From IMG/VR virus record IMGVR_UViG_3300028800_000075: 64,000 nucleotides of DNA; one strand, 5' to 3'. The notes under the pieces were generated by a model, which was not told where the DNA came from, searched no databases, and saw nothing but the letters and a program-made list of their open reading frames with translations. This DNA comes from an uncultured virus (IMG/VR IMGVR_UViG_3300028800_000075). Its lineage: Duplodnaviria; Heunggongvirae; Uroviricota; Caudoviricetes. How positions within the stretch are numbered: position 1 is the stretch's first letter; each line of letters opens with the position of its first letter. A program made the translations under genes and the position numbers. Positions 27,701 to 62,530 of the stretch are shown here, one piece after another.

Positions 27701-28924
27701 ATTGTCAATGTCTGTGTCTATAAGATTGACCTGGTCAATAGCGACATCATCTATAAACCCCAACGTTTCATGTTTGAAATGTCGCGGTTTCCTGCACGGT
27801 TGACGACGGCCCAATGGTTGCCATTGCCCCAACAACCCACCGCTGCCGACGTTATCAACTCAATTCCAACGTTGAATTTTAGCCAAGATCCGAACGCTGG
27901 TACTGCCGCGGCGATCACTAATGGCTTTGAATACGCGTCGTCAGTCATCGCCGGTAATGATGGCCTCAAGAATGTTCGCGTTGCTCTCGACGATGATTCG
28001 TATTCATTCTTGACGGCCAATCAAAAGGCGGAATTGTTGCAGAACCACGTCGCCAGTCAGTTGCTCGAGTCGTACATTAAGTTGATGATCGGCATGGACG
28101 TAGCTGAGTCAAATTTCAGCATGGCACCCGCAGCGCCACCAGCTGAAGCTAGCTTCGTGCAAACGCTCACAGAACACATGGTGTCGTCTGTCGCTGACCA
28201 AGTGACAAGGAAAGCAACACAGCCTCCGGGAAAGGGTTCTACTGCCCCCTCGGGTGGCGTCATGTTTTCAACGACAGTCGTGGGGTCTCCACCCGGCATT
28301 CAATCGTTGGCGGCACCTGCTTCAATCTCGCAGCCTACGTATGCCAACGCGGCCGGCGTCGGTGGGTCAGTGACAACATCAACAGTGAATGGTCAAATTC
28401 AACCCGCTTCAGCGCCCATTCAATCGCTAGAACAACAGGCCGTCGTCGGTAACCTTGATGCTAACCTCAGCACCATTTCTGCACGTAATACCTCCGTTGT
28501 GTATGAACAGCTCAGGACGATCAACGGTTTTTCCAACACTTTGACGACGGCATCGGATCCCACTTCACTGGCCCAACGGGTGGTGGCTCCGCGGACGTTT
28601 GACCGCGTCTTCAACATCATTGTTGATCCCAATGACTTTGAGATTGATGTGACAGCGACGATCGCTAGTCCCTATGGCAAGGACGCGTTAGGGCTGATGA
28701 TCGCCAATGGCGAGATCGTCACGGCAACCGAAAGTGATCAGGCTGCATTTCAGGTGCTAGCGACGGCCGTGCGAGCCACCACCCCCGGTTCTCGAAGCTT
28801 CGGCCGCGGTCGGCCCGCGCCCAACGTCAACAACTACCAATATCGCCCGCGTGATCGCAACAACGGCGACCTGATCACCGACAAGTACTTCGTCACCATT
28901 GAGACTCTCGACGAGGGCACGTAA
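24788..28924 (+). CDS. Large putative virion protein (1378 aa)
   Basis: Long ORF, T/S/N/Q-rich, structural operon. Confidence 0.6.
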   Translation: MAMIASLRVNNATTANLGNVAIQPVTTTPGAQANKQLTTPVTAISSHPLPAYQAPVGLPIIIVKGAITLKNDLSVSVADVVKQMTAPRMVIPLTNGVNTIMPTFNLALNAGKQNDPRLTLGFIETATNFQPYEQLTGISQERPEVVMLSHFLPLFDHDAVGASPNFIGLIEAGGINSYMTDAGKYLDAQINIRNLRSFNTQSLITQLKARYANIAKQFNDREAAFSSALSALNVDASFLLNLVRIIESQKAQLDLRHDIYLIDPTQVGSLNSTNFAQQQVSTNAQVGGSRAPTSNFAKLAQRLKPKYDFVDVLVELGYKQDTVAKVYASSKIWMQVLVELSYALKYHTLQFLDIDPSSQRNDTNPSTILLPQANRFSLALSLPNLANLDELSNLQVAQAQDTLGTIRPAYNLIYQNVLFKDEEARIAALAHLLTSEYRYSQGLTNDSTRRILRDFYGFTVSDQGGNSSLFDSIIGKFGNNITDFPSQATNVLTSIAQQISGDTGVLTFETKYVEGDTGTTTPGGDYYFDQILQTDGTKFNTTNIDALALVLERSHDAFSIVVDGLKLMADYGRDGVILNNTSALLDAIKTKLVDASGTTSQMLQNDKLAAVFAYARNDNNVKSTLFLYIISKISRSYGINVPGFASSPTADNTPLVDYLVELVNQSLAASVPTSRTTIQFINDEGLNNVVTTALTPEAIATALKSGTELTTYIQQLMSQILIQFRVTTTAINKGYTRFNGYIDTTVLMVAFDLIIAMVARYGNTSIVGTTSDQTTITAGLTNYTIARSGTGNADSIRELSERADGEDARVQQMILAIIGGMKALNASLKLISNYLKSPPAIQHLQDIATILNHDQQLLGMLFSEQQIMMLAASVQNLLAASAPTQPTSKAKASQGISGTPKKVQVLDESQISPALRAALFGYFGTDQFATVKGTNKRILTVGVPLGFTQRLKQKVNIQQQQRASFQNRRNDIVNVCVYKIDLVNSDIIYKPQRFMFEMSRFPARLTTAQWLPLPQQPTAADVINSIPTLNFSQDPNAGTAAAITNGFEYASSVIAGNDGLKNVRVALDDDSYSFLTANQKAELLQNHVASQLLESYIKLMIGMDVAESNFSMAPAAPPAEASFVQTLTEHMVSSVADQVTRKATQPPGKGSTAPSGGVMFSTTVVGSPPGIQSLAAPASISQPTYANAAGVGGSVTTSTVNGQIQPASAPIQSLEQQAVVGNLDANLSTISARNTSVVYEQLRTINGFSNTLTTASDPTSLAQRVVAPRTFDRVFNIIVDPNDFEIDVTATIASPYGKDALGLMIANGEIVTATESDQAAFQVLATAVRATTPGSRSFGRGRPAPNVNNYQYRPRDRNNGDLITDKYFVTIETLDEGT

Positions 28925-28928
28925 ACAC

Positions 28929-30908
28929 ATGACAATTTCACAACCCTCTAAGTTGGTCTATTCGATCGACGTGCCTGAAGTCACTGACTTCAACGCCGCG
29001 TTCAAGTACAACTTTTTTACGCCCGATGAGTGCGTCAATGATTCGGGCGGCGTACCCGCTCGTGCACTGTCGCGCCCCGGGGGTAACATTGACACCAACT
29101 TCATTCAGTGGTCGCTCACTCGGGTGCCCCGCGAGGTCACCTTCAACTTTTCGCTGCCCAAGATGGCCGACGTGGGCAATGCCGTCAGCGCTCAGGCCCA
29201 ACGTAGCAACGCTAACAGGACGACGGGTGCTCAATACGGATCGCTGATCCTAGACAATGTCGACAAAATTGTCAATGAGGACTTCTTCGCCGCCAATGGC
29301 TTTGTTGCCATCAGTTTTCACGACGGCAAGATCGATGACAAGATTCATTCATTGGTGACGGGTACTTTGGCAGTGCAGACGCTGCAATCAACGCATCCCG
29401 ACAGTACTAGTCACTACAAGGCATCCGCAAAGCTATCGACGGTGCTGCCCAATGACATCAAGCCTCACTTTGTCTTCCGCGCCTTGACGCAACCCAACAA
29501 TGCATACGGTGGACAATTTTACGTGCCTGCCGGCGACACGACGACTCGTGCGGCCACGGGAGGTTATGCTCAACCCTCATCGACCTCAACGACGCTGCAG
29601 CGGTTCGTCAACGGCTACTACGAGGGATTGAAGAACGTGTCGGTCAACGTGCAGGTCAACGCTAAGTTGTTGCAGGACATGCTCGAGCGGACGATCAGCG
29701 ATCCCACGACGTCGATGGCCGGCGATGTCACCAACATGCACTCATATGCCCGGTCAGCAAAGCAGGCAACGAACCAACGCGCGACGCCCGCAGTGTCGGA
29801 GAGCGACTACAAGACGTACGTGCCATACATCAGCGTTCACAAGCAGAACACGGCGATGCACCACGACAAGTACGGTGCCGAACTGGTGGGCTTTGTCATT
29901 GACAAGGTCGAAGTGCTGCCCGATGGTACCACCGTCGTTCACCCACCCATCGTCGTGGATAGTCCCCATGCGGCCACGACGGCCGACTTCCGCGTCAAGT
30001 TCAATGCTAACTACTGCTACAACATCAGGACGATCGCCCTACTGACGCTGCCGGCGATCGATGAAAACAACGAGGACATCGCGACTGTCAAGGTGTTGGT
30101 CAGCAGCAAGCCGTCGAACCGCGTCTACGTCAGCACCAGCAAGTTCGACGCTCCTCCTCCTCCCGGTGACATTGACTTTACGTGGAACTATGAGGCCCAG
30201 AGCCTGCTAGTGTCGTGGGCTTTTCCGGTCTGGTCACAGCAGGACATCAAGCAGTTTCAGGTCTTCAGGCGCACGACGGTCGACCACCCGTTTCAGTTGC
30301 AGAAGTCGTATAACTTCGACGATTCCGACATCAAATTTCCCGATCCCGAGAACCCCGATCCCGTGTTGGTGGAGTACCTGACGTCACCCTGCCAGTTCTA
30401 TATCGACGATGACTTCGATCCCAAGGTCAATTCTTCACGTGACAAGGGTTTCATCTATGCTGTGTCCTGTATCGATGCTCACGGCCTGTCGAGCCCGCTG
30501 TCGGCGCAGTACCGCGTGTGGTTCGATCAATTCAAGAATAAGCTGCAGCTCGAACACGTCAGTCACCTCGGTGCTCCCAAGCCCTATCCGAACTTGTACC
30601 TCGACGGTGACGTCTTCGTCAATACCATCAAGGTGGCTGGGCCCCACAGCAAACGGATGAAGCTGTACTTCAACCCGGAGTACTACTACTTGTACGACGA
30701 TCAGAACAGGTTGACGCCGACACTGGCGACGCAGCAGCGGGGAGGCAGTTACAAGTTGCAGTTCATCAACATCGATAATGGCAAGGCGCAGGACATCGAC
30801 ATTGCGATCAACGACCAGATGAGCACCAATTTGCAACCGCTGGCGACGACACAAGTCAGCCTCGGGCCCAAGCGACGGAATAGGGCACTGGCCAACAGTG
30901 CGCCGTAA
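28929..30908 (+). CDS. Putative virion protein with an FN3-like C-terminal region
   Basis: PPPPGDI..LLVSW..FQVFRR..FIYAVSCIDAHGLSS; ATG 28929 preferred. Confidence 0.65.
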   Translation: MTISQPSKLVYSIDVPEVTDFNAAFKYNFFTPDECVNDSGGVPARALSRPGGNIDTNFIQWSLTRVPREVTFNFSLPKMADVGNAVSAQAQRSNANRTTGAQYGSLILDNVDKIVNEDFFAANGFVAISFHDGKIDDKIHSLVTGTLAVQTLQSTHPDSTSHYKASAKLSTVLPNDIKPHFVFRALTQPNNAYGGQFYVPAGDTTTRAATGGYAQPSSTSTTLQRFVNGYYEGLKNVSVNVQVNAKLLQDMLERTISDPTTSMAGDVTNMHSYARSAKQATNQRATPAVSESDYKTYVPYISVHKQNTAMHHDKYGAELVGFVIDKVEVLPDGTTVVHPPIVVDSPHAATTADFRVKFNANYCYNIRTIALLTLPAIDENNEDIATVKVLVSSKPSNRVYVSTSKFDAPPPPGDIDFTWNYEAQSLLVSWAFPVWSQQDIKQFQVFRRTTVDHPFQLQKSYNFDDSDIKFPDPENPDPVLVEYLTSPCQFYIDDDFDPKVNSSRDKGFIYAVSCIDAHGLSSPLSAQYRVWFDQFKNKLQLEHVSHLGAPKPYPNLYLDGDVFVNTIKVAGPHSKRMKLYFNPEYYYLYDDQNRLTPTLATQQRGGSYKLQFINIDNGKAQDIDIAINDQMSTNLQPLATTQVSLGPKRRNRALANSAP

Positions 30909-30937
30909 AGTGTGTGAGGATAGGGTAAGATTAGGAT

Positions 30938-31114
30938 ATGACTAACGTAGAGTGCGACCATCGTTGCAAGCCTTTGGCAAATGATCATCCTGATCGACCT
31001 GGGAAAAAGTTCGAGTGCTGTTTATGCGGTGAATTGTTTGAAGAAGTGTGCAAACCAATTGCTATACAGCCTCAATTCAAGATGCACGTCGGCGCGCCAA
31101 ATAACAAGCCATGA
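30938..31114 (+). CDS. Small Cys-rich ORF (58 aa), not in ORF track
   Basis: MTNVECDHRC...FECCLCGE...; TAAGAT 6 nt upstream; ATGA overlap with GIY-YIG gene. Confidence 0.6.
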   Translation: MTNVECDHRCKPLANDHPDRPGKKFECCLCGELFEEVCKPIAIQPQFKMHVGAPNNKP

Positions 31115-31845
31115 TCGTCTACTTGGTCCGCAATCGCCTGAATGGGAAGGGCTACGTGGGGGTGACGAAGTATACGCTTGAATGGCGATGGAAAGAACAT
31201 TTGAGTGATGCCCGATGTGGCAGTAAGTTGGCGTTTCACTGTGCCATTCGTAAGTGGGGTGTTGACGCCTTTGAATTGTCGATCATTGAAACGTTGAGTG
31301 AGAGTGCATCACTTGTAGATCTTGACGTCGCCGAAAGACGGTGGGTTAAAGATCTCGACACTTTTGGTAAGAACGGTTATAACATGACACCTGGTGGTCG
31401 TGTTGGGGGTGGTTGGGTGAAGGGTTATGTTGTCAAACAATCAACAAGAGAGAAACTTTCCTTAAGTCGTCGTGGTAAGAAGAATTCACTTGAACAGAAT
31501 GTTTTAATTACCACTGGGGTTCGCGCGTATTACGCTACACACGATGGTCCCAACAAGGATAAACCGTGGAGTGATGAGACACGATTGAAAAATATGGTCA
31601 TCAGACACCCACGTAAAAAGCCCGTGTTTGGTTACAATGAAATTGGAGAGTGTGTGATTGCTTACTTGTCGATAGATGATGCTGTCGAAGCGACGGGATT
31701 GAGTTATCGTACATTGACAGGCAATCGAAAGAAGTACAAACTCAAGTACGTGGACGGGATTACTTACCGTCGTAGCAAGTTGACGATCGCTGAACTGAAA
31801 GAAGAAGGTAGACCCCATGGGCTGGCTCGACAATTCGACGAATAA
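31111..31845 (+). mobile_element. Free-standing GIY-YIG homing endonuclease
   Basis: IVYLVRNRLNGKGYVGVT, RWKEH, GYNMTPGG, NUMOD-like C-terminus. Confidence 0.9.
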
Positions 31846-32533
31846 CTTGATTCTTGATGCTTGTCTCACTGACGTGGGCCGTCAATTCCTCGCTCGCAAC
31901 GATGGCTCCTTCGCGGTGCACAAGTACGCGCTCGGCGATGACGAAGTCAACTACGGTATCATCACGAAATACGGCCGAACTGTGGGAGCCGAAAAGATCG
32001 AAAAGAACACCCCCATCTTCGAGGCGCTGACCAACCAAGCCATCGCCCAGAAGTATAGGTTGATCTCCGTCTCCAATCCCAACCTGCTGTACATGCCCCT
32101 ATTGTCCCTGACGGGTGATGCCAACGTTGACGGCCTCAACGAGCTGGTGACGCTGGGCCTCAACACGCAGCAGACGGCGGCTGTCACCGTGCAGCAGACT
32201 ATTCAGAATGAGACGACGATCGACGTGGAACTACGCGACCAGACGTTCCTGCTCGACGTGCCCAACCTCTTCGTGCAGATCCTGAAGAACACTCCTGAGA
32301 ACATCGACGGCAACCAGCGGGCGACATATGTCCTGACCAGGTCGCCGGCGGAGAACTCCTACGGTGGTTCGTCAGTGCAATTCACGATGTCAGTCAAGAG
32401 CTTGACCAATGCGTTGTTTCAGGTCTACGGGACGACGGCCGACAAGACCTTGATCAAGGCGTTCATGAAGGTGACGGGTGTTCAGAGCGGCGCGGTTCAA
32501 GAGATAGGAATTGTCATCAATCAAAACCTCTAA
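31817..32533 (+). CDS. Putative virion (baseplate/tail) protein
   Basis: MGWLDN..ILDACLTDVGRQFLA..YALGDDEVNY; paralog of 21304. Confidence 0.7.
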   Translation: MGWLDNSTNNLILDACLTDVGRQFLARNDGSFAVHKYALGDDEVNYGIITKYGRTVGAEKIEKNTPIFEALTNQAIAQKYRLISVSNPNLLYMPLLSLTGDANVDGLNELVTLGLNTQQTAAVTVQQTIQNETTIDVELRDQTFLLDVPNLFVQILKNTPENIDGNQRATYVLTRSPAENSYGGSSVQFTMSVKSLTNALFQVYGTTADKTLIKAFMKVTGVQSGAVQEIGIVINQNL

Positions 32534-32570
32534 GAGGTGTAGATCGTACCCTTAAGTGGTATGATCAGTT

Positions 32571-33473
32571 GTGTACGTCAAGACGATTGAAGAACTGTTC
32601 ATTGATAAACGCTGGGGTCACCCTAGAGCCCGCCACATTGACGTGTATGCATGTGATGAGTGTGGCGCAGAGCACATGACATCTCACAGGGCAGCGCATG
32701 CTACTAGCGCTGCATTGACGTTCTGTTCGCGTGATTGCAGTAAGCGTTCGAGATCAAGTGGAAAGTTAGCGCAGAAGTGTGTGGATGTTAGGGTTGAGCG
32801 GTACGGCGTTGAATACTCGTCGCAAGTACCCGGTGCGACAGAAAAGATGATTGTGACGAGGGTTGAGAGAACTGGGGCACTTGCGCCGTCAGATCCTACA
32901 TCATCATCGAATGTCAAGTTCAAGCAGACGATGATGGAGAGGCACGGTGCCGATCACCCGTCGAATGCCATTGGCGTCAAGGCGAAGAAGTTAGAGACGT
33001 ACCGCGAGAGGTACGGTGTTGATAGCCCGTTCAGTGCGGGATCACCGTTCAGATTATCAAGTGAAGAATTGAGAGTTGCAGGTCAAAAAGGGTATCGATC
33101 TACAGCGAGACAAGAGAACGGATGGATTGTGTCAAAGCCTGAGCAAGCATTAGTTGAGTTTCTGCGAATGAGGTATGGTAACGTTGAACAACAAGCTCTC
33201 GTTGAACACGGGACACGTAAATGCTGGTTGATTGATGCGTACGTATGCAGCATTGACACATATGTGCAGCTTGATGGTGAGTTCTGGCATGGTCTCGATA
33301 AACCCTACGAAGATCTACACCCGACCAGTAAGAGGGCTTATGATGCCGACCGGGCGCAAGATGAATGGTTCAGAACACATGGACGCAGATTAGTTAGGAT
33401 AACCGACAAGGAACTGATCATGTGCAATAAACTCAACGACTGGTCAACAGTTCTCCAACGATTGGAGGGGTAA
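32571..33473 (+). mobile_element. Free-standing Vsr/DUF559-like (EDxHD-type) homing endonuclease
   Basis: CDECG/FCSRDC, ERYGV repeats, SKPE..IDAY..VQLDGEFWHG..DRAQD..LVRI; own -10 TATGAT. Confidence 0.8.
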
Positions 33474-33477
33474 TCCC

Positions 33478-34722
33478 ATCGCAACCTTCAAAGAAGTCCT
33501 CCCGTCAGACATCAAGGTGGCTCGTTCGTTTCTGAACCAGCTCATCGACGTCCTGCAACAGGACATCAGCGGGTCGGTGTCTCGCCGCAAGTACCAAGTC
33601 TTCGTCACTGGGGGCATCGGACCTGGTGTGACGAGCTCTCTCTTTCAAACCGTCTATGACTCGGACTTCACGCTCCAGACCGCCAACGCCATCTTCGACA
33701 TGACGGTGGGCCTAGGCCCCGGCGGCACTACGGAGCTGACGAGCCAGACGGGCGTCGACGCCGCGGGCAAGGAACTATTCCCCAGCTCCAGCCTGATGGT
33801 ACGCGAGAAGATGGACGTCTACCGCCAGTTCGCGCAGTCGCTATTAGGCAATGCAACGACCACTTTCACCTCGCCGCTCAACAGCAGCAATCCATCGGAC
33901 AACATCGACGTGGCGCTGTTCATCGCCTTCAAGCGGTTGTTCGCACGTGACAGCATCAAGCGCGAGACGTTTGCGATGCGGTTCTTTCAGACGGCGTCGG
34001 CCGTCGGCCCATCGGGACAGAATGAGCCCCCGACTGCAGGCCCGGTCGGCGACGTCGGATGGATCACCAACCTCAACGTCAATTCGACCGTCGGCTCGGC
34101 GATTTACACCGACATCGGCGCCGCGACCAATAAGCTGTCGACGTTCGGGGGCCAGGTCGGCAACATTGTCGACAGCGCCAACACCACCCGTAACGTGGGC
34201 CTGATGTTCTATGATCGCGGCATCCTCGTCCTTGACATGGCCAAGGTGACCAGCGGCAGCCAGTTCGTGTCGGGCACCATCGACGCCATGGCAGCGCTGG
34301 GCAACCAGACGTTGGGTGCCAAGGGGACGGAGACCAAGTGGAAGTCAGCGTTCATCCCTGACTTCGTCGTCAGTGCGTCGATTGATAACATCATCGACCA
34401 CGTCGCCGGTTGCAGGATGGGCTCAGGCAGCAACACCGCCATCACCTTCCAGAACATCACCAACATCAATTCGAGCCTGATCTTCTGTCGGGCGGGCGCA
34501 GACGAGTTCAATTACTCGTCGAACCCAACATACACAGACACCTCCAACCGGATCGTGGTAATTGACGTGGGTCAGGAAGACACGCAGCAGAGCTTCACCT
34601 ACATCACGAGCGTTGGCCTCTATGACGCCAACGACAATCTCCTCGCCGTCGCCAAACTCAGTCGCCCGGTGCAGAAGAACAGTGAACGAGATCTGACGCT
34701 ACGCCTCCGCCTCGACTTCTGA
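33478..34722 (+). CDS. Putative virion (tail/baseplate) protein; probable non-AUG (ATC) start
   Basis: C-terminal YITSVGLYDANDNLLAVAKLSRPVQK..RLDF; GGAGG 9 nt before in-frame ATC-GCA-ACC-TTC-AAA. Confidence 0.75.
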   Translation: MATFKEVLPSDIKVARSFLNQLIDVLQQDISGSVSRRKYQVFVTGGIGPGVTSSLFQTVYDSDFTLQTANAIFDMTVGLGPGGTTELTSQTGVDAAGKELFPSSSLMVREKMDVYRQFAQSLLGNATTTFTSPLNSSNPSDNIDVALFIAFKRLFARDSIKRETFAMRFFQTASAVGPSGQNEPPTAGPVGDVGWITNLNVNSTVGSAIYTDIGAATNKLSTFGGQVGNIVDSANTTRNVGLMFYDRGILVLDMAKVTSGSQFVSGTIDAMAALGNQTLGAKGTETKWKSAFIPDFVVSASIDNIIDHVAGCRMGSGSNTAITFQNITNINSSLIFCRAGADEFNYSSNPTYTDTSNRIVVIDVGQEDTQQSFTYITSVGLYDANDNLLAVAKLSRPVQKNSERDLTLRLRLDF

Positions 34723-34796
34723 TCCTCGCGCGCCTTTGGTCGGTTCTTCATGTTTGGGGAATCGTGGTGTAGGGTAGTTAGAGAGTACAGCGACCG

Positions 34797-37346
34797 ATGC
34801 CCTCGATCTATCCGTTCGATCCCACTGACCTTGAAACGTTCACCGTCGTCACCAACCCGGTGCGCACGTACACGTCGAGTTCGACGCAGGGCTCCACAGG
34901 TTCGATCTACGTCTATCCGCGTCACTCGTTGATCCAGAAGGACATTCAGCCCGATTCTTCGTTCACCGAGGCGGCCCACGATGATGCCGATCTGTCGTCG
35001 TTGCTGCACCAAGTGCAGATGTCAGCCAAAGTCAGTGCCAATGCCATCACCCACGCCGGTGCCTTGGTCAGTGGCAGCCTCACCAGCCTGCTGACGCAGT
35101 ACATGGCAGGCTGCGCCACACAGGGGCAAGCCGAGCGCCTGAAGGTCAAGCTTGACATCGTCAGGTTTTCTCCTCCTCCCGCGTTCAACAGCAACACCCT
35201 ACGCAAGTTGATCATCAAGGACCAACTCAACACGTTCTATCGACCCACCTACCCGACGGCACACTGGGCCTACACCAACTACAACACCCTCAACTTCTTC
35301 ACCGCGTCGATGGTGCCCACGTCGTCGGTGTTGCTGTACCCGAACATCGGTGGGGGCAACGGAGGCCTCGTCGTCAACAAGGGCCATGCCAGCGGCACCT
35401 ACACGCCGAGTGGCTCCTTCAGCTTTGACTTCTACATCAATCCGCGGTACCAACAGGACGCGCCCAACAAGCCCTTCAAGGCGGGCACCATCCTCCACTT
35501 ATCATCGACCTTTGCCCTATCGCTGGTCACGGGTTCAGGCGTCGACTACACTGGCCGTAGCGTGGGCTTTCGCCTGCAGCTACAGTTGAGCCAGTCGGCT
35601 GACATTGCACCGTCGACGGCGGTGCCGGGCCCGTACCCGTCAGACCTCATCTTCCTGTCCAACGACAATAGCCTGCAGTGGAACCACTGGCACCATGTCG
35701 TCGTCAGGTGGGGCACCAACCAGATCAACAACGGCGTCGGCACTTTCAATGTCGATGGCCTCGACGTCGGCACCTTCACAGTTCCATCATCGACGATTTC
35801 ACCTGCAGCGTCGACGTTCTCACAAACCAGCAGCCTGGCCAACCCTGACGTCATGTGCCTGGGCAACTTCTACGAGGGGCCCAACACCAACGGCAACCCG
35901 ATGGGTGCCTTCTTTGCGTTCGATCCCGCCAACCGCGACGGCCTGCAGGTGATGTACGCCGAATACGGCGTCGCTGCACCTCCGAGTTACTTCTTTAGGC
36001 ACCCGCTCAATGCCGAGCTTCACGACGTCGCCATCCGTCGCTGCTACATGTCAGACACTGACATTGCCTTCAGCGCCAGCATCGGGCCCACCTTCCTTGA
36101 CAACACTTTCTCATTCTATGTGCCGCCCTTCTTCGTCGAGCAATCGCCATATCGCCAGTTTGTGGGTGACCATGGCGGCCTCCTCATCACCCCCTTTGAA
36201 GAGATCGACGGTGCCTCAACGACACCCTTCAGCGTCGCACTGTCGTTCGGCGTCGCGGGTCACTACATCAACCTTGAGAACTTTGGTAAGGACTTGGGTT
36301 CACAGGTCTTTCCGTTGCTACATCACCTGACAGGCGTTGCCATTCAGACGTCGACTAGTGCGGAGACGTGTAATGACTTCCTGTACTCGCAACCCTTCGT
36401 TGCCAAGCGCAACCTGACGATCCTACCTTGCGACGACGGCAATTTCGTTCCCAGCTTTCAATTGCTGGTGTCGGAGGGATTGGCCCGCGCCGTCGATGAC
36501 CTGGGCCTCGATGAGCTCAGCTTCATCAACCTCGACAACATGATCTCGACGGCGACGCTGATGTTCGGCGCGGGGGCCTTCGACGACGGCACGCAGCCCG
36601 ATGTGCAGGTCAATGCCTTTGCCAACATCCAGCTGGGCGCGACGCCTGAGACGCCTTTCACCGCGGCGGGCCCGGCAACGTTGAACTACATCAACACTGC
36701 ACAGTCGGGCAGTGACGTCGAGTTCGGTGCGCCGCTGACGGTCTTTCAACGCACGCAGGATCCGTCGTCGAATGAAGTCGTCGTCTTTGACATCAGCAAC
36801 CTGTACTACGGTTTCAGGATCAGCCCGGGTACGCTGACATTCAGTGAACCCGATCTGATGCGATCGAGCCTGTTGGGCTCGCAGCATGATATTACGCAAC
36901 CCAACACGCGTGGGCCCATCTCGATTAACTTGGCCGATGATGGGCGTGGCAACGTGTACCGGGCAGATTGCTTGACGCCACAGGCAACGTGGAACTCGGT
37001 GGGCAATGTGTATTACGACGAGGGTCTGGTGCTGCTCAAGAGCCCTCACCTGTACTTCTATGGCCTCAATCAATTCGGCACCAACTTCAGGGGTGAGCAG
37101 CACGTGCACGTCATGAAGCTTGATGCCTTTGCGCCGAGCAATCAATTGAACAGCTCGAGCAATCCCAACTACGCGTCGGTGCCTCCGACGGGCTATCCGA
37201 ATGACCCCGAGGACAACTTCGTCTACATCACCAACCTGTACTTCCACGACCGTGACTTAAATGTGGTGATGAAGACGGCACTCGCTCAACCCATCGCGAA
37301 AAGGCCGGGGGATAAAGTCCTCTTTAAGATCAAGTACGACTTCTAA
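34797..37346 (+). CDS. Putative virion protein with a LamG/concanavalin-like domain
   Basis: SFSFDFYINP, WNHWHHVVVRW; C-terminus YITNLYFHD..AQPIAKR..KYDF paralogous to 33478. Confidence 0.75.
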   Translation: MPSIYPFDPTDLETFTVVTNPVRTYTSSSTQGSTGSIYVYPRHSLIQKDIQPDSSFTEAAHDDADLSSLLHQVQMSAKVSANAITHAGALVSGSLTSLLTQYMAGCATQGQAERLKVKLDIVRFSPPPAFNSNTLRKLIIKDQLNTFYRPTYPTAHWAYTNYNTLNFFTASMVPTSSVLLYPNIGGGNGGLVVNKGHASGTYTPSGSFSFDFYINPRYQQDAPNKPFKAGTILHLSSTFALSLVTGSGVDYTGRSVGFRLQLQLSQSADIAPSTAVPGPYPSDLIFLSNDNSLQWNHWHHVVVRWGTNQINNGVGTFNVDGLDVGTFTVPSSTISPAASTFSQTSSLANPDVMCLGNFYEGPNTNGNPMGAFFAFDPANRDGLQVMYAEYGVAAPPSYFFRHPLNAELHDVAIRRCYMSDTDIAFSASIGPTFLDNTFSFYVPPFFVEQSPYRQFVGDHGGLLITPFEEIDGASTTPFSVALSFGVAGHYINLENFGKDLGSQVFPLLHHLTGVAIQTSTSAETCNDFLYSQPFVAKRNLTILPCDDGNFVPSFQLLVSEGLARAVDDLGLDELSFINLDNMISTATLMFGAGAFDDGTQPDVQVNAFANIQLGATPETPFTAAGPATLNYINTAQSGSDVEFGAPLTVFQRTQDPSSNEVVVFDISNLYYGFRISPGTLTFSEPDLMRSSLLGSQHDITQPNTRGPISINLADDGRGNVYRADCLTPQATWNSVGNVYYDEGLVLLKSPHLYFYGLNQFGTNFRGEQHVHVMKLDAFAPSNQLNSSSNPNYASVPPTGYPNDPEDNFVYITNLYFHDRDLNVVMKTALAQPIAKRPGDKVLFKIKYDF

Positions 37347-37363
37347 GTTGTTGATATCATTGA
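37344..37363 (-). promoter_or_regulatory. IHF-consensus site (copy 1 of a 20-bp element)
   Basis: Reverse complement TCAATGATATCAACAACTTA contains WATCAANNNNTTR. Confidence 0.6.
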
Positions 37364-37454
37364 CTTTTAAGTGAGTTGACTACATTCACGTTAATTCGAT
37401 CATGATCTTCATCGACGACCATAGTTAAGATCGACAAGAAAGTTGGTTGATCTC

Positions 37455-37607
37455 ATGAACATTCTCTGGATTCTGTGCTGCATTATCTTCGTGATGTGGC
37501 TATTGGGCTTTGTGTTCTTCCCCATCGCCGGCGGGTTCATTCACCTGCTGTTGCTCGTCATCGTCGTGTTGGTCATCGTCCGCCTGTTGCAAGGCCGCGG
37601 CGTCTAA
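37455..37607 (+). CDS. lmo0937-like small membrane protein (50 aa), not in ORF track
   Basis: MNILWILCCIIFVMWLLGFVFFPIAGGFIHLLLLVIVVLVIVRLLQGRGV: WLLG..GGFIH..RLLQGR signature. Confidence 0.8.
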   Translation: MNILWILCCIIFVMWLLGFVFFPIAGGFIHLLLLVIVVLVIVRLLQGRGV

Positions 37608-37643
37608 CCATCCCCATCGCAGCTCGTCGGACCTATTTACCTC

Positions 37644-37883
37644 ATGCGTATTAGGTTCGGCGAGCTCAAGCGACTGATCGGCGAGGCCAACCGCAACCGG
37701 CGCACGGGCCAGTATTCCTACGAGGCCAACTTCGAGCGCCTCTGCACCTGCGGTCACCCGTTGGCCGTCCACGCCGGCGACGCGCCACACCCGTGTTTCA
37801 ATGATGATACCGGCATTGCAGGTGCGACGGGTGAAGACTGCACCTGTGAAAGGTTCAGGCCCATCCGTGGCAAAAAAGCGTAA
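37644..37883 (+). CDS. Small Cys/His Zn-binding protein with LKRLIGEA leader
   Basis: CTCGH..H..C..CTC; CTATTTA 4 nt before ATG. Confidence 0.75.
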   Translation: MRIRFGELKRLIGEANRNRRTGQYSYEANFERLCTCGHPLAVHAGDAPHPCFNDDTGIAGATGEDCTCERFRPIRGKKA

Positions 37884-38268
37884 GCGTAAGCGTAAGGGCC
37901 ACTACCATACCGGCGTTCACGCGTCTCCCAAGACGGGCCTGACGTGTAAATACCGCTCGGGTTGGGAAAGTTCGTACATGCAGTACCTCGACGCGTCGCC
38001 CGACGTCATCACCTGGGCCTATGAGTCGATCGTCATCCCGTACGTCAGCAACAAGAAGACGGGCAAGCTGCGCAACTATCACCCCGACTTCCTCGTCACC
38101 TACGCCGACGGCCACATCGAACTCGTCGAGGTGAAACCCGCTAGACGGGTGCACCAGGTCAAGGTGGCCAAGAAGTTGTTGGCGGCGGGTGACTGGGCTC
38201 GGGCCCACGGCGTCGCACTGGTCGTCATCACCGAGGTTGAATTGAAGCAACTTGGCCTATTGAAGTAG
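37867..38268 (+). CDS. Head completion nuclease (T4 gp4 / TnsA-N-like)
   Basis: YRSGWE..LD..W.YE.IVIPY..YHPDF..LVEVKP..VITE. Confidence 0.85.
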   Translation: MAKKRKRKRKGHYHTGVHASPKTGLTCKYRSGWESSYMQYLDASPDVITWAYESIVIPYVSNKKTGKLRNYHPDFLVTYADGHIELVEVKPARRVHQVKVAKKLLAAGDWARAHGVALVVITEVELKQLGLLK

Positions 38269-62138: not shown

Positions 62139-62504
62139 GGGGATGAAAGGTTTCGACACGGCGAAGACTTGGTGCGAAGCAGGCCAGGGGCGACCAGGTG
62201 CCCTGACAAACACGTGGTCACGTTTGATCGCCAACGATAACGGCATCGCTGATTACGCTCTCGTGGCGTAACCAACGGGTTCCCAACGACCTAGGAACAG
62301 AATGTTGGGCGCGCTGACACGTCGTCAGCAAAAACGTCTACCTCCCGACGTGATTGGGAGCACGCCAAAGCTCGTGAGTGAGGTGCGTGTAAGAAGTGTC
62401 CTAACCCACTAGTCCCGCCCGAGGACGATCAAGTAGATGGGCTAAACCTGTAGAATCGCACCGAAGACGCGTCGTGGACCCGGGATCATTCCCCGGCATC
62501 TCCA
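62139..62504 (+). ncRNA. ssrA: tmRNA; tag peptide ANDNGIADYALVA* at 62230-62271
   Basis: 5' GGGGATGAAAGGTTTCGAC; 3' CCGGG-ATCATTC-CCCGG-CATCTCC-A; G3:U70 wobble; ssrA-type tag ORF. Confidence 0.95.
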
Positions 62505-62530
62505 CGAATTCCAACGATAGAAAGACACAG

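Follow-up and report, generated by a model that had tools for sequence, protein, structure and literature searches.

In T4-like phages, the free-standing homing endonuclease genes of the seg and mob kind ('intronless homing') lie between conserved genes in the same orientation, with no promoter of their own evident, and they are described as sporadic among close relatives and as carrying expression signals of an essential neighbor embedded in their own sequence, which favors their retention (PMC2988022). I-Bth0305I, a Vsr-like multidomain phage homing endonuclease, cuts a conserved gene right beside the point at which it is inserted (PMC3239194). We analyzed a locus with features of both in a 64,000-nucleotide (nt) stretch of DNA (the window) from an uncultured virus of the Caudoviricetes (IMG/VR record IMGVR_UViG_3300028800_000075), in which a 300-amino-acid (aa) homing-endonuclease-like gene ends directly in front of a conserved 414-aa gene that carries ATC at its start position. 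Our best reading of the comparative data is that this ATC serves as a selected near-cognate start codon of the 414-aa gene. The window locus matches the seg and mob genes in position, orientation, lack of an evident promoter, sporadic occurrence, and the placement of the neighbor's expression signal inside the endonuclease gene. It is unlike seg in that the embedded signal is a ribosome-binding site (RBS) rather than a promoter and the neighbor's start codon has been changed to a codon other than NTG (ATG, GTG, or TTG), and unlike both seg and mob in that the nuclease is, by predicted structure, DUF559/Vsr-like rather than GIY-YIG or HNH, and a relic on its 5' side suggests a target beside the insertion site instead of hundreds of base pairs away. 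I-Bth0305I and the 'EDxHD' nucleases have a C-terminal Vsr-like nuclease fold, and the C-terminus of the window endonuclease matches Vsr and DUF559 clusters by predicted structure, which would speak for a place in this group; I-Bth0305I is intron-encoded, whereas the window endonuclease is free-standing, lacks a ribozyme, carries N-terminal DUF7487 repeats, and has no sequence match to any PDB chain.

The initiation side of this junction has parallels as well. In Escherichia coli, the weak start codon of infC serves autoregulation by initiation factor 3 (IF3). Very few non-NTG starts have been confirmed in bacteria and phages. AUC and ACG can initiate with Met, and for E. coli one preprint names only infC and pcnB as genes with non-NTG starts (10.1101/063800). 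The window ATC resembles the AUU of these two genes as a near-cognate codon at the apparent true start of a conserved gene, kept by selection; it is unlike infC in that the weak codon of this family is polymorphic and occurs strictly with a mobile-element junction and a maximal Shine-Dalgarno (SD) sequence. The stop-to-start distance of +4 nt, with the SD inside the upstream open reading frame (ORF), recalls termination-reinitiation coupling, for which the classic pairs are spaced at +3 nt; the coupled pairs in the consulted portions of those sources use NTG starts (PMC12548453, PMC6728339), and one locus of the present family, L180, lacks an upstream ORF. No paper in our literature search connects a homing endonuclease with a non-canonical start in the gene beside it, which does not prove that none exists. 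The locus combines a free-standing homing endonuclease, a near-cognate start, and a coupling-like junction, all of them known kinds.

The junction comprises the following features of the window.

32571..33473, plus strand: 300-aa free-standing homing-endonuclease-like gene with a GTG start, ending ...RLEG-TAA
33465..33469, plus strand: GGAGG Shine-Dalgarno sequence within the last codons (L-E-G) of the endonuclease gene
33471..33477, plus strand: endonuclease TAA stop (33471-33473) and 4-nt spacer TCCC (33474-33477)
33478..33480, plus strand: ATC, putative near-cognate initiation codon at the conserved start position
33478..34722, plus strand: conserved 414-aa gene, probable virion protein
33517..33519, plus strand: GTG picked by ORF callers, giving a 401-aa product; rejected as the main start

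The endonuclease ORF ends CGA TTG GAG GGG TAA and the ATC is followed by GCA ACC TTC AAA GAA, with a gap of 8 nt by coordinates (33470-33477) between SD and ATC; in the comparison of loci described below it was counted as 9 nt. An earlier note, made from the letters of the window alone, had described an ATC behind GGAGG, directly after the endonuclease gene and in frame with the 401-aa ORF listed from GTG 33517, and this is the arrangement we see. The frame of the 414-aa gene is open from 33418 (TGA at 33415) and contains no ATG, GTG, or TTG between that point and GTG 33517. The same note held that this GTG lacks a properly spaced RBS, and the 20 nt that precede it (TCCTCCCGTCAGACATCAAG) indeed hold no GGAG, GAGG, or AGGA.

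Homologs of the 414-aa protein place its start at the same position. Among 8000 candidates scored, 4466 proteins belong to the family at E<=1e-3, and most of the matches listed are 408-416 aa long, align with 100% coverage, and lie on contigs of up to about 370 kb; the carriers of the family are giant phages. When 120 listed N-termini were read by eye, most began MATFKEILPSDIK, with M exactly at the position of the ATC, and most followed the pattern M-A-T/I-F-K-E-I/V-L-P-S-D-I-K, to which the window sequence (I)ATFKEVLPSDIK is equivalent. About ten of the 120 were called with a short upstream extension in which I, T, or L replaces M, and a few were called truncated. By the alignment of these N-termini, the ATC is the start position of the orthologs, which begin MATFKE and not MARSF. 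The earlier note had additionally aligned the N-terminus with that of an 849-aa paralog encoded downstream; BLASTP aligns only the C-terminal 77 residues of the two proteins (27% identity, E 2e-6), so that this part of the argument lends no support. The gene in the window is intact, and its nearest relatives share 85% identity with it.

To place the ATC among related loci, we fetched 152 loci (72 from IMG/VR and 80 metagenome contigs, numbered with the prefix L) with patterns taken from the middle of the protein, so that the sample is blind to the start codon. Duplicate removal left 101 distinct loci, 100 of them full-length. Within the full-length set, 88 loci carry ATG, GTG, or TTG and 12 carry a non-NTG codon, and the truncated L137 brings the latter to 13; in 4 of the 88 canonical loci an ATG lies two codons further in. 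A scan of IMG/VR for the junction pattern, with the start codon left free, returned 10 loci, of which 8 were known, L180 was new, and L179 was a chance match that sits in an unrelated gene. The non-NTG codons are distributed as follows.

ATC: window, L083, L020, L022, L114, L124, L180
ACG: L052, L043, L061, L064
ATT: L062, L137
GTC: L066

The start codons of 87 distinct canonical loci are 67 ATG, 18 GTG, and 2 TTG. Each of the 14 non-NTG codons differs from ATG or GTG by exactly one mismatch, always at position 2 or 3, and G is found at position 3 only together with C at position 2 (4 ACG, 10 xT(not G)). The upstream ORF ends L-G-G or L-E-G in 14/14 of these loci, and the distance from its stop (TAA, TAG, or TGA) to the start is exactly 4 nt in all 14, with spacers that vary (TCCC, AATC, AAAC, AAAA, ACCC, ACCA, GACA, AGTC, GAAA, GAAG, and CATC). 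GGAGG stands 8-9 nt before the start in 13/13 near-cognate loci examined for it versus 0/87 canonical ones, most of which have 4-nt SD matches; positions +4 to +39 revealed no other systematic difference between the near-cognate and canonical groups. Even near-identical junctions carry different codons (ATC in the window versus ACG in L052; ACG in L061 versus ATT in L062), none of them NTG. In every locus examined, the non-NTG codon accompanies the junction module. The earlier note had tied the non-ATG codon to an endonuclease directly upstream, and this link is supported: endonuclease-free relatives with a clean intergenic region never have a non-NTG codon (0/87 distinct loci). It needs one qualification: loci whose endonuclease has been deleted or replaced, but which retain its last codons, still have a near-cognate codon there.

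The rarity of ATC starts is the one point that speaks for a sequencing or assembly error, with G as the true base at 33480. The same ATC is found in L001, L002, L005, and L012, which are IMG/VR assemblies of four separate samples, in a 361,059-bp metagenome contig (L098), and in the Logan contigs of 4/4 runs compared (X7, X11, X12, and X13), with 0 letters differing; the Logan evidence consists of contigs at a word depth of about 3-11 rather than raw reads, X7 is perhaps the source sample, and all four runs are from rhizosphere and from one year. At the contig level, then, the codon reads ATC and not ATG, as the earlier note had it. Moreover, 13 other distinct loci from other samples show a non-NTG codon too, and we regard the probability of an error as negligible.

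We then asked whether the codons between the ATC and the first canonical start are translated. In the set of 13 near-cognate loci, synonymous divergence (pS) at codons 2-13 is 0.83 and nonsynonymous divergence (pN) is 0.18, giving a pN/pS of 0.22, compared with 0.17 for codons 14-40 of the same loci; in 32 close canonical relatives the corresponding ratios are 0.17 (codons 2-13) and 0.16 (codons 14-40). Codons 2-13 are thus under purifying selection in non-NTG loci, which argues that they are translated. No canonical in-frame start is common to the near-cognate loci, either upstream or downstream, and from this absence together with the constraint on codons 2-13 it follows that translation probably begins at, or immediately before, codon 2. 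As judged from these alignments, the one start candidate that these loci have in common is the near-cognate codon, with its perfect SD in front.

The same data bear on the possibility that the window gene starts at GTG 33517, yielding a 401-aa product without the first 13 residues, or is decaying. GTG 33517 is the first canonical in-frame codon, and the public cluster representative P0002 is the 401-aa call. This GTG has no SD before it, however, and is unique to this phage: the corresponding codon 14 is ACN, TCN, or AGC in the other near-cognate loci. In all near-cognate loci, codons 2-13 are under the same constraint as the remainder of the gene, the AlphaFold2 (AF2) model of the 414-aa protein has a strand at residues 12-25, and the intactness of the gene and its 85% identity to the nearest relatives speak against decay. 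As the earlier note had suspected, GTG 33517 is a poor alternative, and we consider a start there, or decay, very improbable.

A different way to dispense with initiation at the ATC would be a +1 frameshift of the prfB type at the endonuclease stop, with GGAGG acting as the SD-like element and a fusion protein as the product. Two points speak for such a mechanism: relative to the upstream ORF, the 414-aa gene always lies in the +1 frame, and GGAGG precedes the stop. In prfB, a slippery P-site codon re-pairs in +1 beside the stop and the SD lies about 3 nt upstream. At the present junctions, by contrast, the SD extends into the last sense codon, and at the GGA-TAA junctions of L061, L064, and L062 the P-site tRNA would be unable to re-pair in +1. 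L180 has no translatable upstream ORF, and a frameshift would not constrain the codon, yet the codon is always near-cognate. We regard this explanation as extremely improbable.

RNA structure hiding the SD or start was considered as a conserved feature of the junction and rejected: the window fold has a z of -0.19, and folding the alignment of 13 junctions yields -1.74 kcal/mol and 0 compensatory pairs. Separately, positions 33451-33467 of the window hold a 6-bp inverted repeat with a 3-nt loop (CTCCAA...TTGGAG) that could pair the first half of the SD; the CUCCAA/UUGGAG hairpin occurs in the window only and is not kept in the other 12 junctions.

In the 300-aa protein, DUF7487 repeats and a Zn-finger-like motif (CDEC...C..C) are combined with a DUF559/Vsr-like nuclease domain at the C-terminus. 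Its N-terminal half matches PF24308 DUF7487 (E 7.6e-11), and residues 28-162 match phrog_3339 'homing endonuclease' (E 3.7e-11). When residues 185-300 (116 residues) were compared with ESM Atlas structures, DUF559 and Vsr clusters were recovered at template-modeling (TM) scores of 0.75-0.82; in Pfam, DUF559 appears only as a weak hint (E 0.053) in one ortholog, the AF2 model of this C-terminal domain is poor (predicted local distance difference test, pLDDT, below 50), and sequence searches of the PDB with the endonuclease (phmmer and profile) gave chance-level rows only. Intact orthologs in L022, L043, L061, L064, and L020 share 49-56% identity. The clade defined by a search with its own alignment (48-100% identity), which includes the new L083, is found only before the 414-aa gene and always with a non-NTG start, whereas distant relatives (<=40% identity) are located elsewhere, before ATG or GTG starts. 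In all, the endonuclease is present in 8 distinct genotypes, remnants are found in 5-6 more, and it is absent from 87 distinct loci. This pattern of presence and absence among close relatives is, on the sequences compared, the behavior of a free-standing homing endonuclease. A group I intron or intein was rejected as the carrier: an Rfam search at E<=1 over 28000-38000 was empty, the endonuclease ORF is bordered by no more than 37 nt and 4 nt of non-ORF sequence, which leaves no room for a ribozyme core, and the genes on either side (a 238-aa gene and the 414-aa gene) are separate in 87 relatives rather than split exons.

Taken together, these observations can be read to mean that the ATC is the real start, maintained by selection as part of an endonuclease-linked junction module, with NTG avoided for the sake of immunity, a reading that we hold to be about an even call. 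The endonuclease would recognize the 5' end of the 414-aa gene, including the invariant T and G of its start codon. Because position 1 varies (A, G, or T) in endonuclease-free alleles, a genome carrying the cassette would remain uncut only if T2 or G3 were changed. Viability would require the codon to be kept near-cognate, compensated by a maximal SD, and the cassette would bring this SD in its own last codons, together with a stop 4 nt upstream that would feed ribosomes to the weak codon. Initiator tRNA would most likely start at the near-cognate codon, aided by the optimal GGAGG and probably also by ribosomes fresh from terminating 4 nt upstream. The varied codons, the saturated spacers and synonymous sites, and the absence of both NTG and two-mismatch codons argue for two constraints, 'do not be NTG' and 'stay near-cognate'. 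Immunity would account for both, making the start codon the determinant of immunity to the endonuclease, an assignment that we place somewhere between moderately doubtful and even. We propose, tentatively and with clearly less than even confidence, that the endonuclease targets the first ~10 codons of an essential phage gene, so that every genome with the cassette has to break the start codon of that gene for immunity, as would have happened repeatedly (ATG to ATC, ATT, or ACG; GTG to GTC).

A relic of the putative target on the 5' side of the cassette bears on this reading, and the corresponding region of the window is the following.

32534..32570, plus strand: 5' flank of the endonuclease cassette, with GAGGTG and then ATC (32543-45)

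A degenerate pattern for codons 4-9 of the 414-aa gene (F/I-K-E-V/I-L-P) matched 31 times at the gene's own 5' end in the 101 loci, and only 2 extra matches were found in 1.36 Mb. Both lie directly upstream of the endonuclease start (L022:3077-3093 and L083:2476-2492), so that in these two loci the copy of codons 4-9 forms a direct repeat around the cassette. The position of this copy would put the ancestral target, or point of insertion, among the first ~10 codons, and it suggests, as a lead, that the cassette entered there and that a functional 5' end was regenerated at its 3' side.

Several observations weigh against immunity as the sole explanation. The relic of the target 5' end is clear in 2 lineages only and degenerate in the window, where 32534-32570 aligns to the 5' end of the 414-aa gene only with gaps and mismatches. 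In E. coli, such non-NTG codons give only about 0.1-3% of AUG (10.1101/063800), and a highly expressed protein made from them would need strong compensation. On a gene tree from which the first 40 alignment columns were left out, non-NTG loci are scattered and require 8 changes (L124_ATC, for instance, is sister to L125_ATG with support 100); starred branches force at least 2 of these changes, and well-supported ones only 2, so that many independent origins are weakly supported and a single ancient origin followed by recombination is compatible with the tree. Finally, loci that have lost or exchanged the original endonuclease (L052, L062, L137, L180, L066, and in part L124) still carry GGAGG and a near-cognate codon, which goes beyond what self-immunity alone requires. 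The loci concerned are the following.

L052 and L137: remnant, a 29-codon ORF (MKLVRITD...LEG/LGG) with its own ATG
L062: remnant, a short ORF of 26 codons from the first NTG
L124: remnant, the nuclease half only, 121 aa
L180: remnant, broken, behind a GIY-YIG gene; the frame to the stop has 7 codons and no start codon
L066: a GIY-YIG ORF itself ends ...ALGG-TGA-GAAG-GTC

In L137, a 117-aa ORF overlaps the 29-codon remnant at ATGA (L137:505-826 and 822-909), and the stop of the remnant lies 4 nt before the ATT.

The tree and the remnants could both reflect legacy hitch-hiking, in which one ancestral cassette carried a mutated start that its perfect SD made nearly neutral, and the codon variants arose by drift and recombination. 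The small number of changes forced by well-supported branches fits this account, as does the position of the codon 4 nt from the cassette end, where it would be co-converted, and its survival beside remnants without a nuclease. Drift, however, should give NTG and two-mismatch codons; adjacent synonymous sites are saturated (pS 0.83) and the spacers differ in most lineages, yet 14/14 codons are one mismatch away, none is NTG, and G3 occurs only with C2 (4 ACG versus 10 xT(not G)). We therefore consider hitch-hiking of this kind quite unlikely.

The persistence of the codon in remnants and behind GIY-YIG genes is the main difficulty for immunity, and it fits better with translational coupling and retention, or with resistance alleles kept while the endonuclease circulates. 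Under coupling, the weak codon would make de novo initiation poor, and the gene would depend mostly on ribosomes that GGAGG catches as they terminate 4 nt upstream. Its expression would thereby be tied to translation of the endonuclease ORF or of what remains of it, and deletions would have to spare the 3' end of the cassette; the embedded RBS would then play the part that promoters of essential genes play within the seg genes of T4, where they favor retention of the endonuclease (PMC2988022). The distance of exactly 4 nt in 14/14 loci, despite varied stops and spacers, speaks for coupling, and no deletion derivative has lost the final codons that contain the SD (29 codons remain in L052 and L137; 121 aa in L124). 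The 29-codon ORF of L137 is itself ATGA-overlapped with the 117-aa ORF, the unrelated GIY-YIG ORF of L066 ends in the same LGG-stop junction, and both coupling at +3 nt spacings and an SD-dependent scanning model, by which an SD can hold scanning ribosomes, are documented (PMC12548453). Against this, L180 has kept its ATC with an upstream frame of 7 codons and no start codon, there is no clear phage-level reason for selection against reversion to ATG, and the fold values given above indicate no conserved RNA structure needing to be opened (-1.74 kcal/mol and 0 compensatory pairs; window z -0.19). Coupling and retention thus strike us as unlikely, though far from negligible, as the whole explanation. 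The earlier note had named immunization of the target site and tuning of expression as alternatives for the ATG-to-ATC change; the comparative data fit the two alike, and computation cannot separate them.

Endonuclease genes have a hotspot in the intergenic region that separates the 238-aa gene from the 414-aa gene, where at least three other lineages are found (L007, L009, L024/L026, L028/L029, L066, and L180). Other lineages at the same site keep ATG, GTG, or TTG (L007, L009, L024/26, and L028/29), the occupants being a GIY-YIG gene in L007 and distant DUF7487 proteins (27-28% identity) in L009, L024/26, and L028/29. In L061/L063, two DUF7487 endonuclease genes stand in tandem.

The earlier note had called the 414-aa gene structural, a label that our searches did not establish. 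The protein has no Pfam or PHROG family. Its AF2 model has a pLDDT of 77 and a predicted template-modeling score (pTM) of 0.70, and Foldseek found nothing in the PDB at E<=1e-3. In VIA-align, a small domain formed from N- and C-terminal strands resembled small beta-domains that occur in baseplate, tail, and neck proteins of phages, with a best Z of 5.2, below the tool's noise bar, and the matches in BFVD are uncharacterized phage proteins. In the phage GenBank collection, the locus is without a match at the DNA level, and at the protein level the only matches are distant ones to the C-terminal domain (Microcystis, Rhodothermus, and Flavobacterium phages). A virion or structural role is a reasonable guess from context.

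The genes surrounding the junction in the window are as follows.

31111..31845, plus strand: GIY-YIG homing-endonuclease gene, 244 aa, inserted between a 669-aa gene and the 238-aa gene
31817..32533, plus strand: conserved 238-aa gene, the usual upstream neighbor of the 414-aa gene in endonuclease-free relatives
34797..37346, plus strand: 849-aa paralog with only a C-terminal ~77-aa domain in common with the 414-aa protein

The GIY-YIG gene matches PF01541 GIY-YIG (E 1.1e-8) and phrog_314 'homing endonuclease' (E 3.9e-31). For the junction behind this gene, the earlier note had given an equivalent layout, AAGGTAGACCCC-ATG; the sequence is present at 31805-31819, but the GIY-YIG ORF continues to 31845 and overlaps that ATG. 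In most canonical loci, tblastn locates a homolog of the 238-aa gene 2-37 nt upstream of where the 414-aa gene begins, and searches of Pfam and PHROG with the 238-aa protein returned no family. Some relatives have the 238-aa and 414-aa genes called as one ORF, the upstream stop being replaced by a sense codon; examples are P0093 (671 aa; 18 member sequences) and L180:1263-2588, whose proteins also extend beyond the usual ...RLDF end (ARKRSFRYTK and ARKSSFRCTR, respectively).

A special initiator tRNA encoded by the phage was considered as a helper of the near-cognate codon and rejected. The search covered the window and G001, the nearest available record (141,862 bp, estimated 38% complete); no tRNA was found in the window, and in G001 ARAGORN found no GAU anticodon and one tRNA-Met(CAT), which is not initiator-like. 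In G001, an array holds 24 Rfam tRNA matches (L188-L211), at G001:C1 about 121,900-133,100 and 96,186-96,257. This tRNA-Met(CAT) has a paired U1:A72 end and no GGG/CCC anticodon stem, and we take it, presumably, to be an elongator or tRNA-Ile2 rather than an initiator. Two further ARAGORN predictions in G001 have four-letter anticodons (ggtg and ttca). The window also holds a full-length transfer-messenger RNA (tmRNA) gene at 62139-62507 on the plus strand (Rfam RF00023, 84.7 bits), for which ARAGORN gives the tag peptide ALTNTWSRLIANDNGIADYALVA. No RNA runs containing the stretch were listed.

For annotation, the consequence is that gene callers mis-annotate the 414-aa gene in such phages, either truncating it, as in the 401-aa call here, or extending it upstream. 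For the biology of the family, the 14 distinct natural loci keep a near-cognate start, with no reversion to NTG seen and always with a mobile-element junction. They offer a natural system for asking how far a perfect SD and nearby termination can rescue initiation at AUC, AUU, ACG, or GUC, whether a homing endonuclease can force a change in the start codon of its neighbor, and whether translation signals embedded in selfish genes can lock them into a genome. If the reading proposed here is true, a mobile element would have rewritten the translation of the gene beside it and, in doing so, made its own 3' end indispensable.

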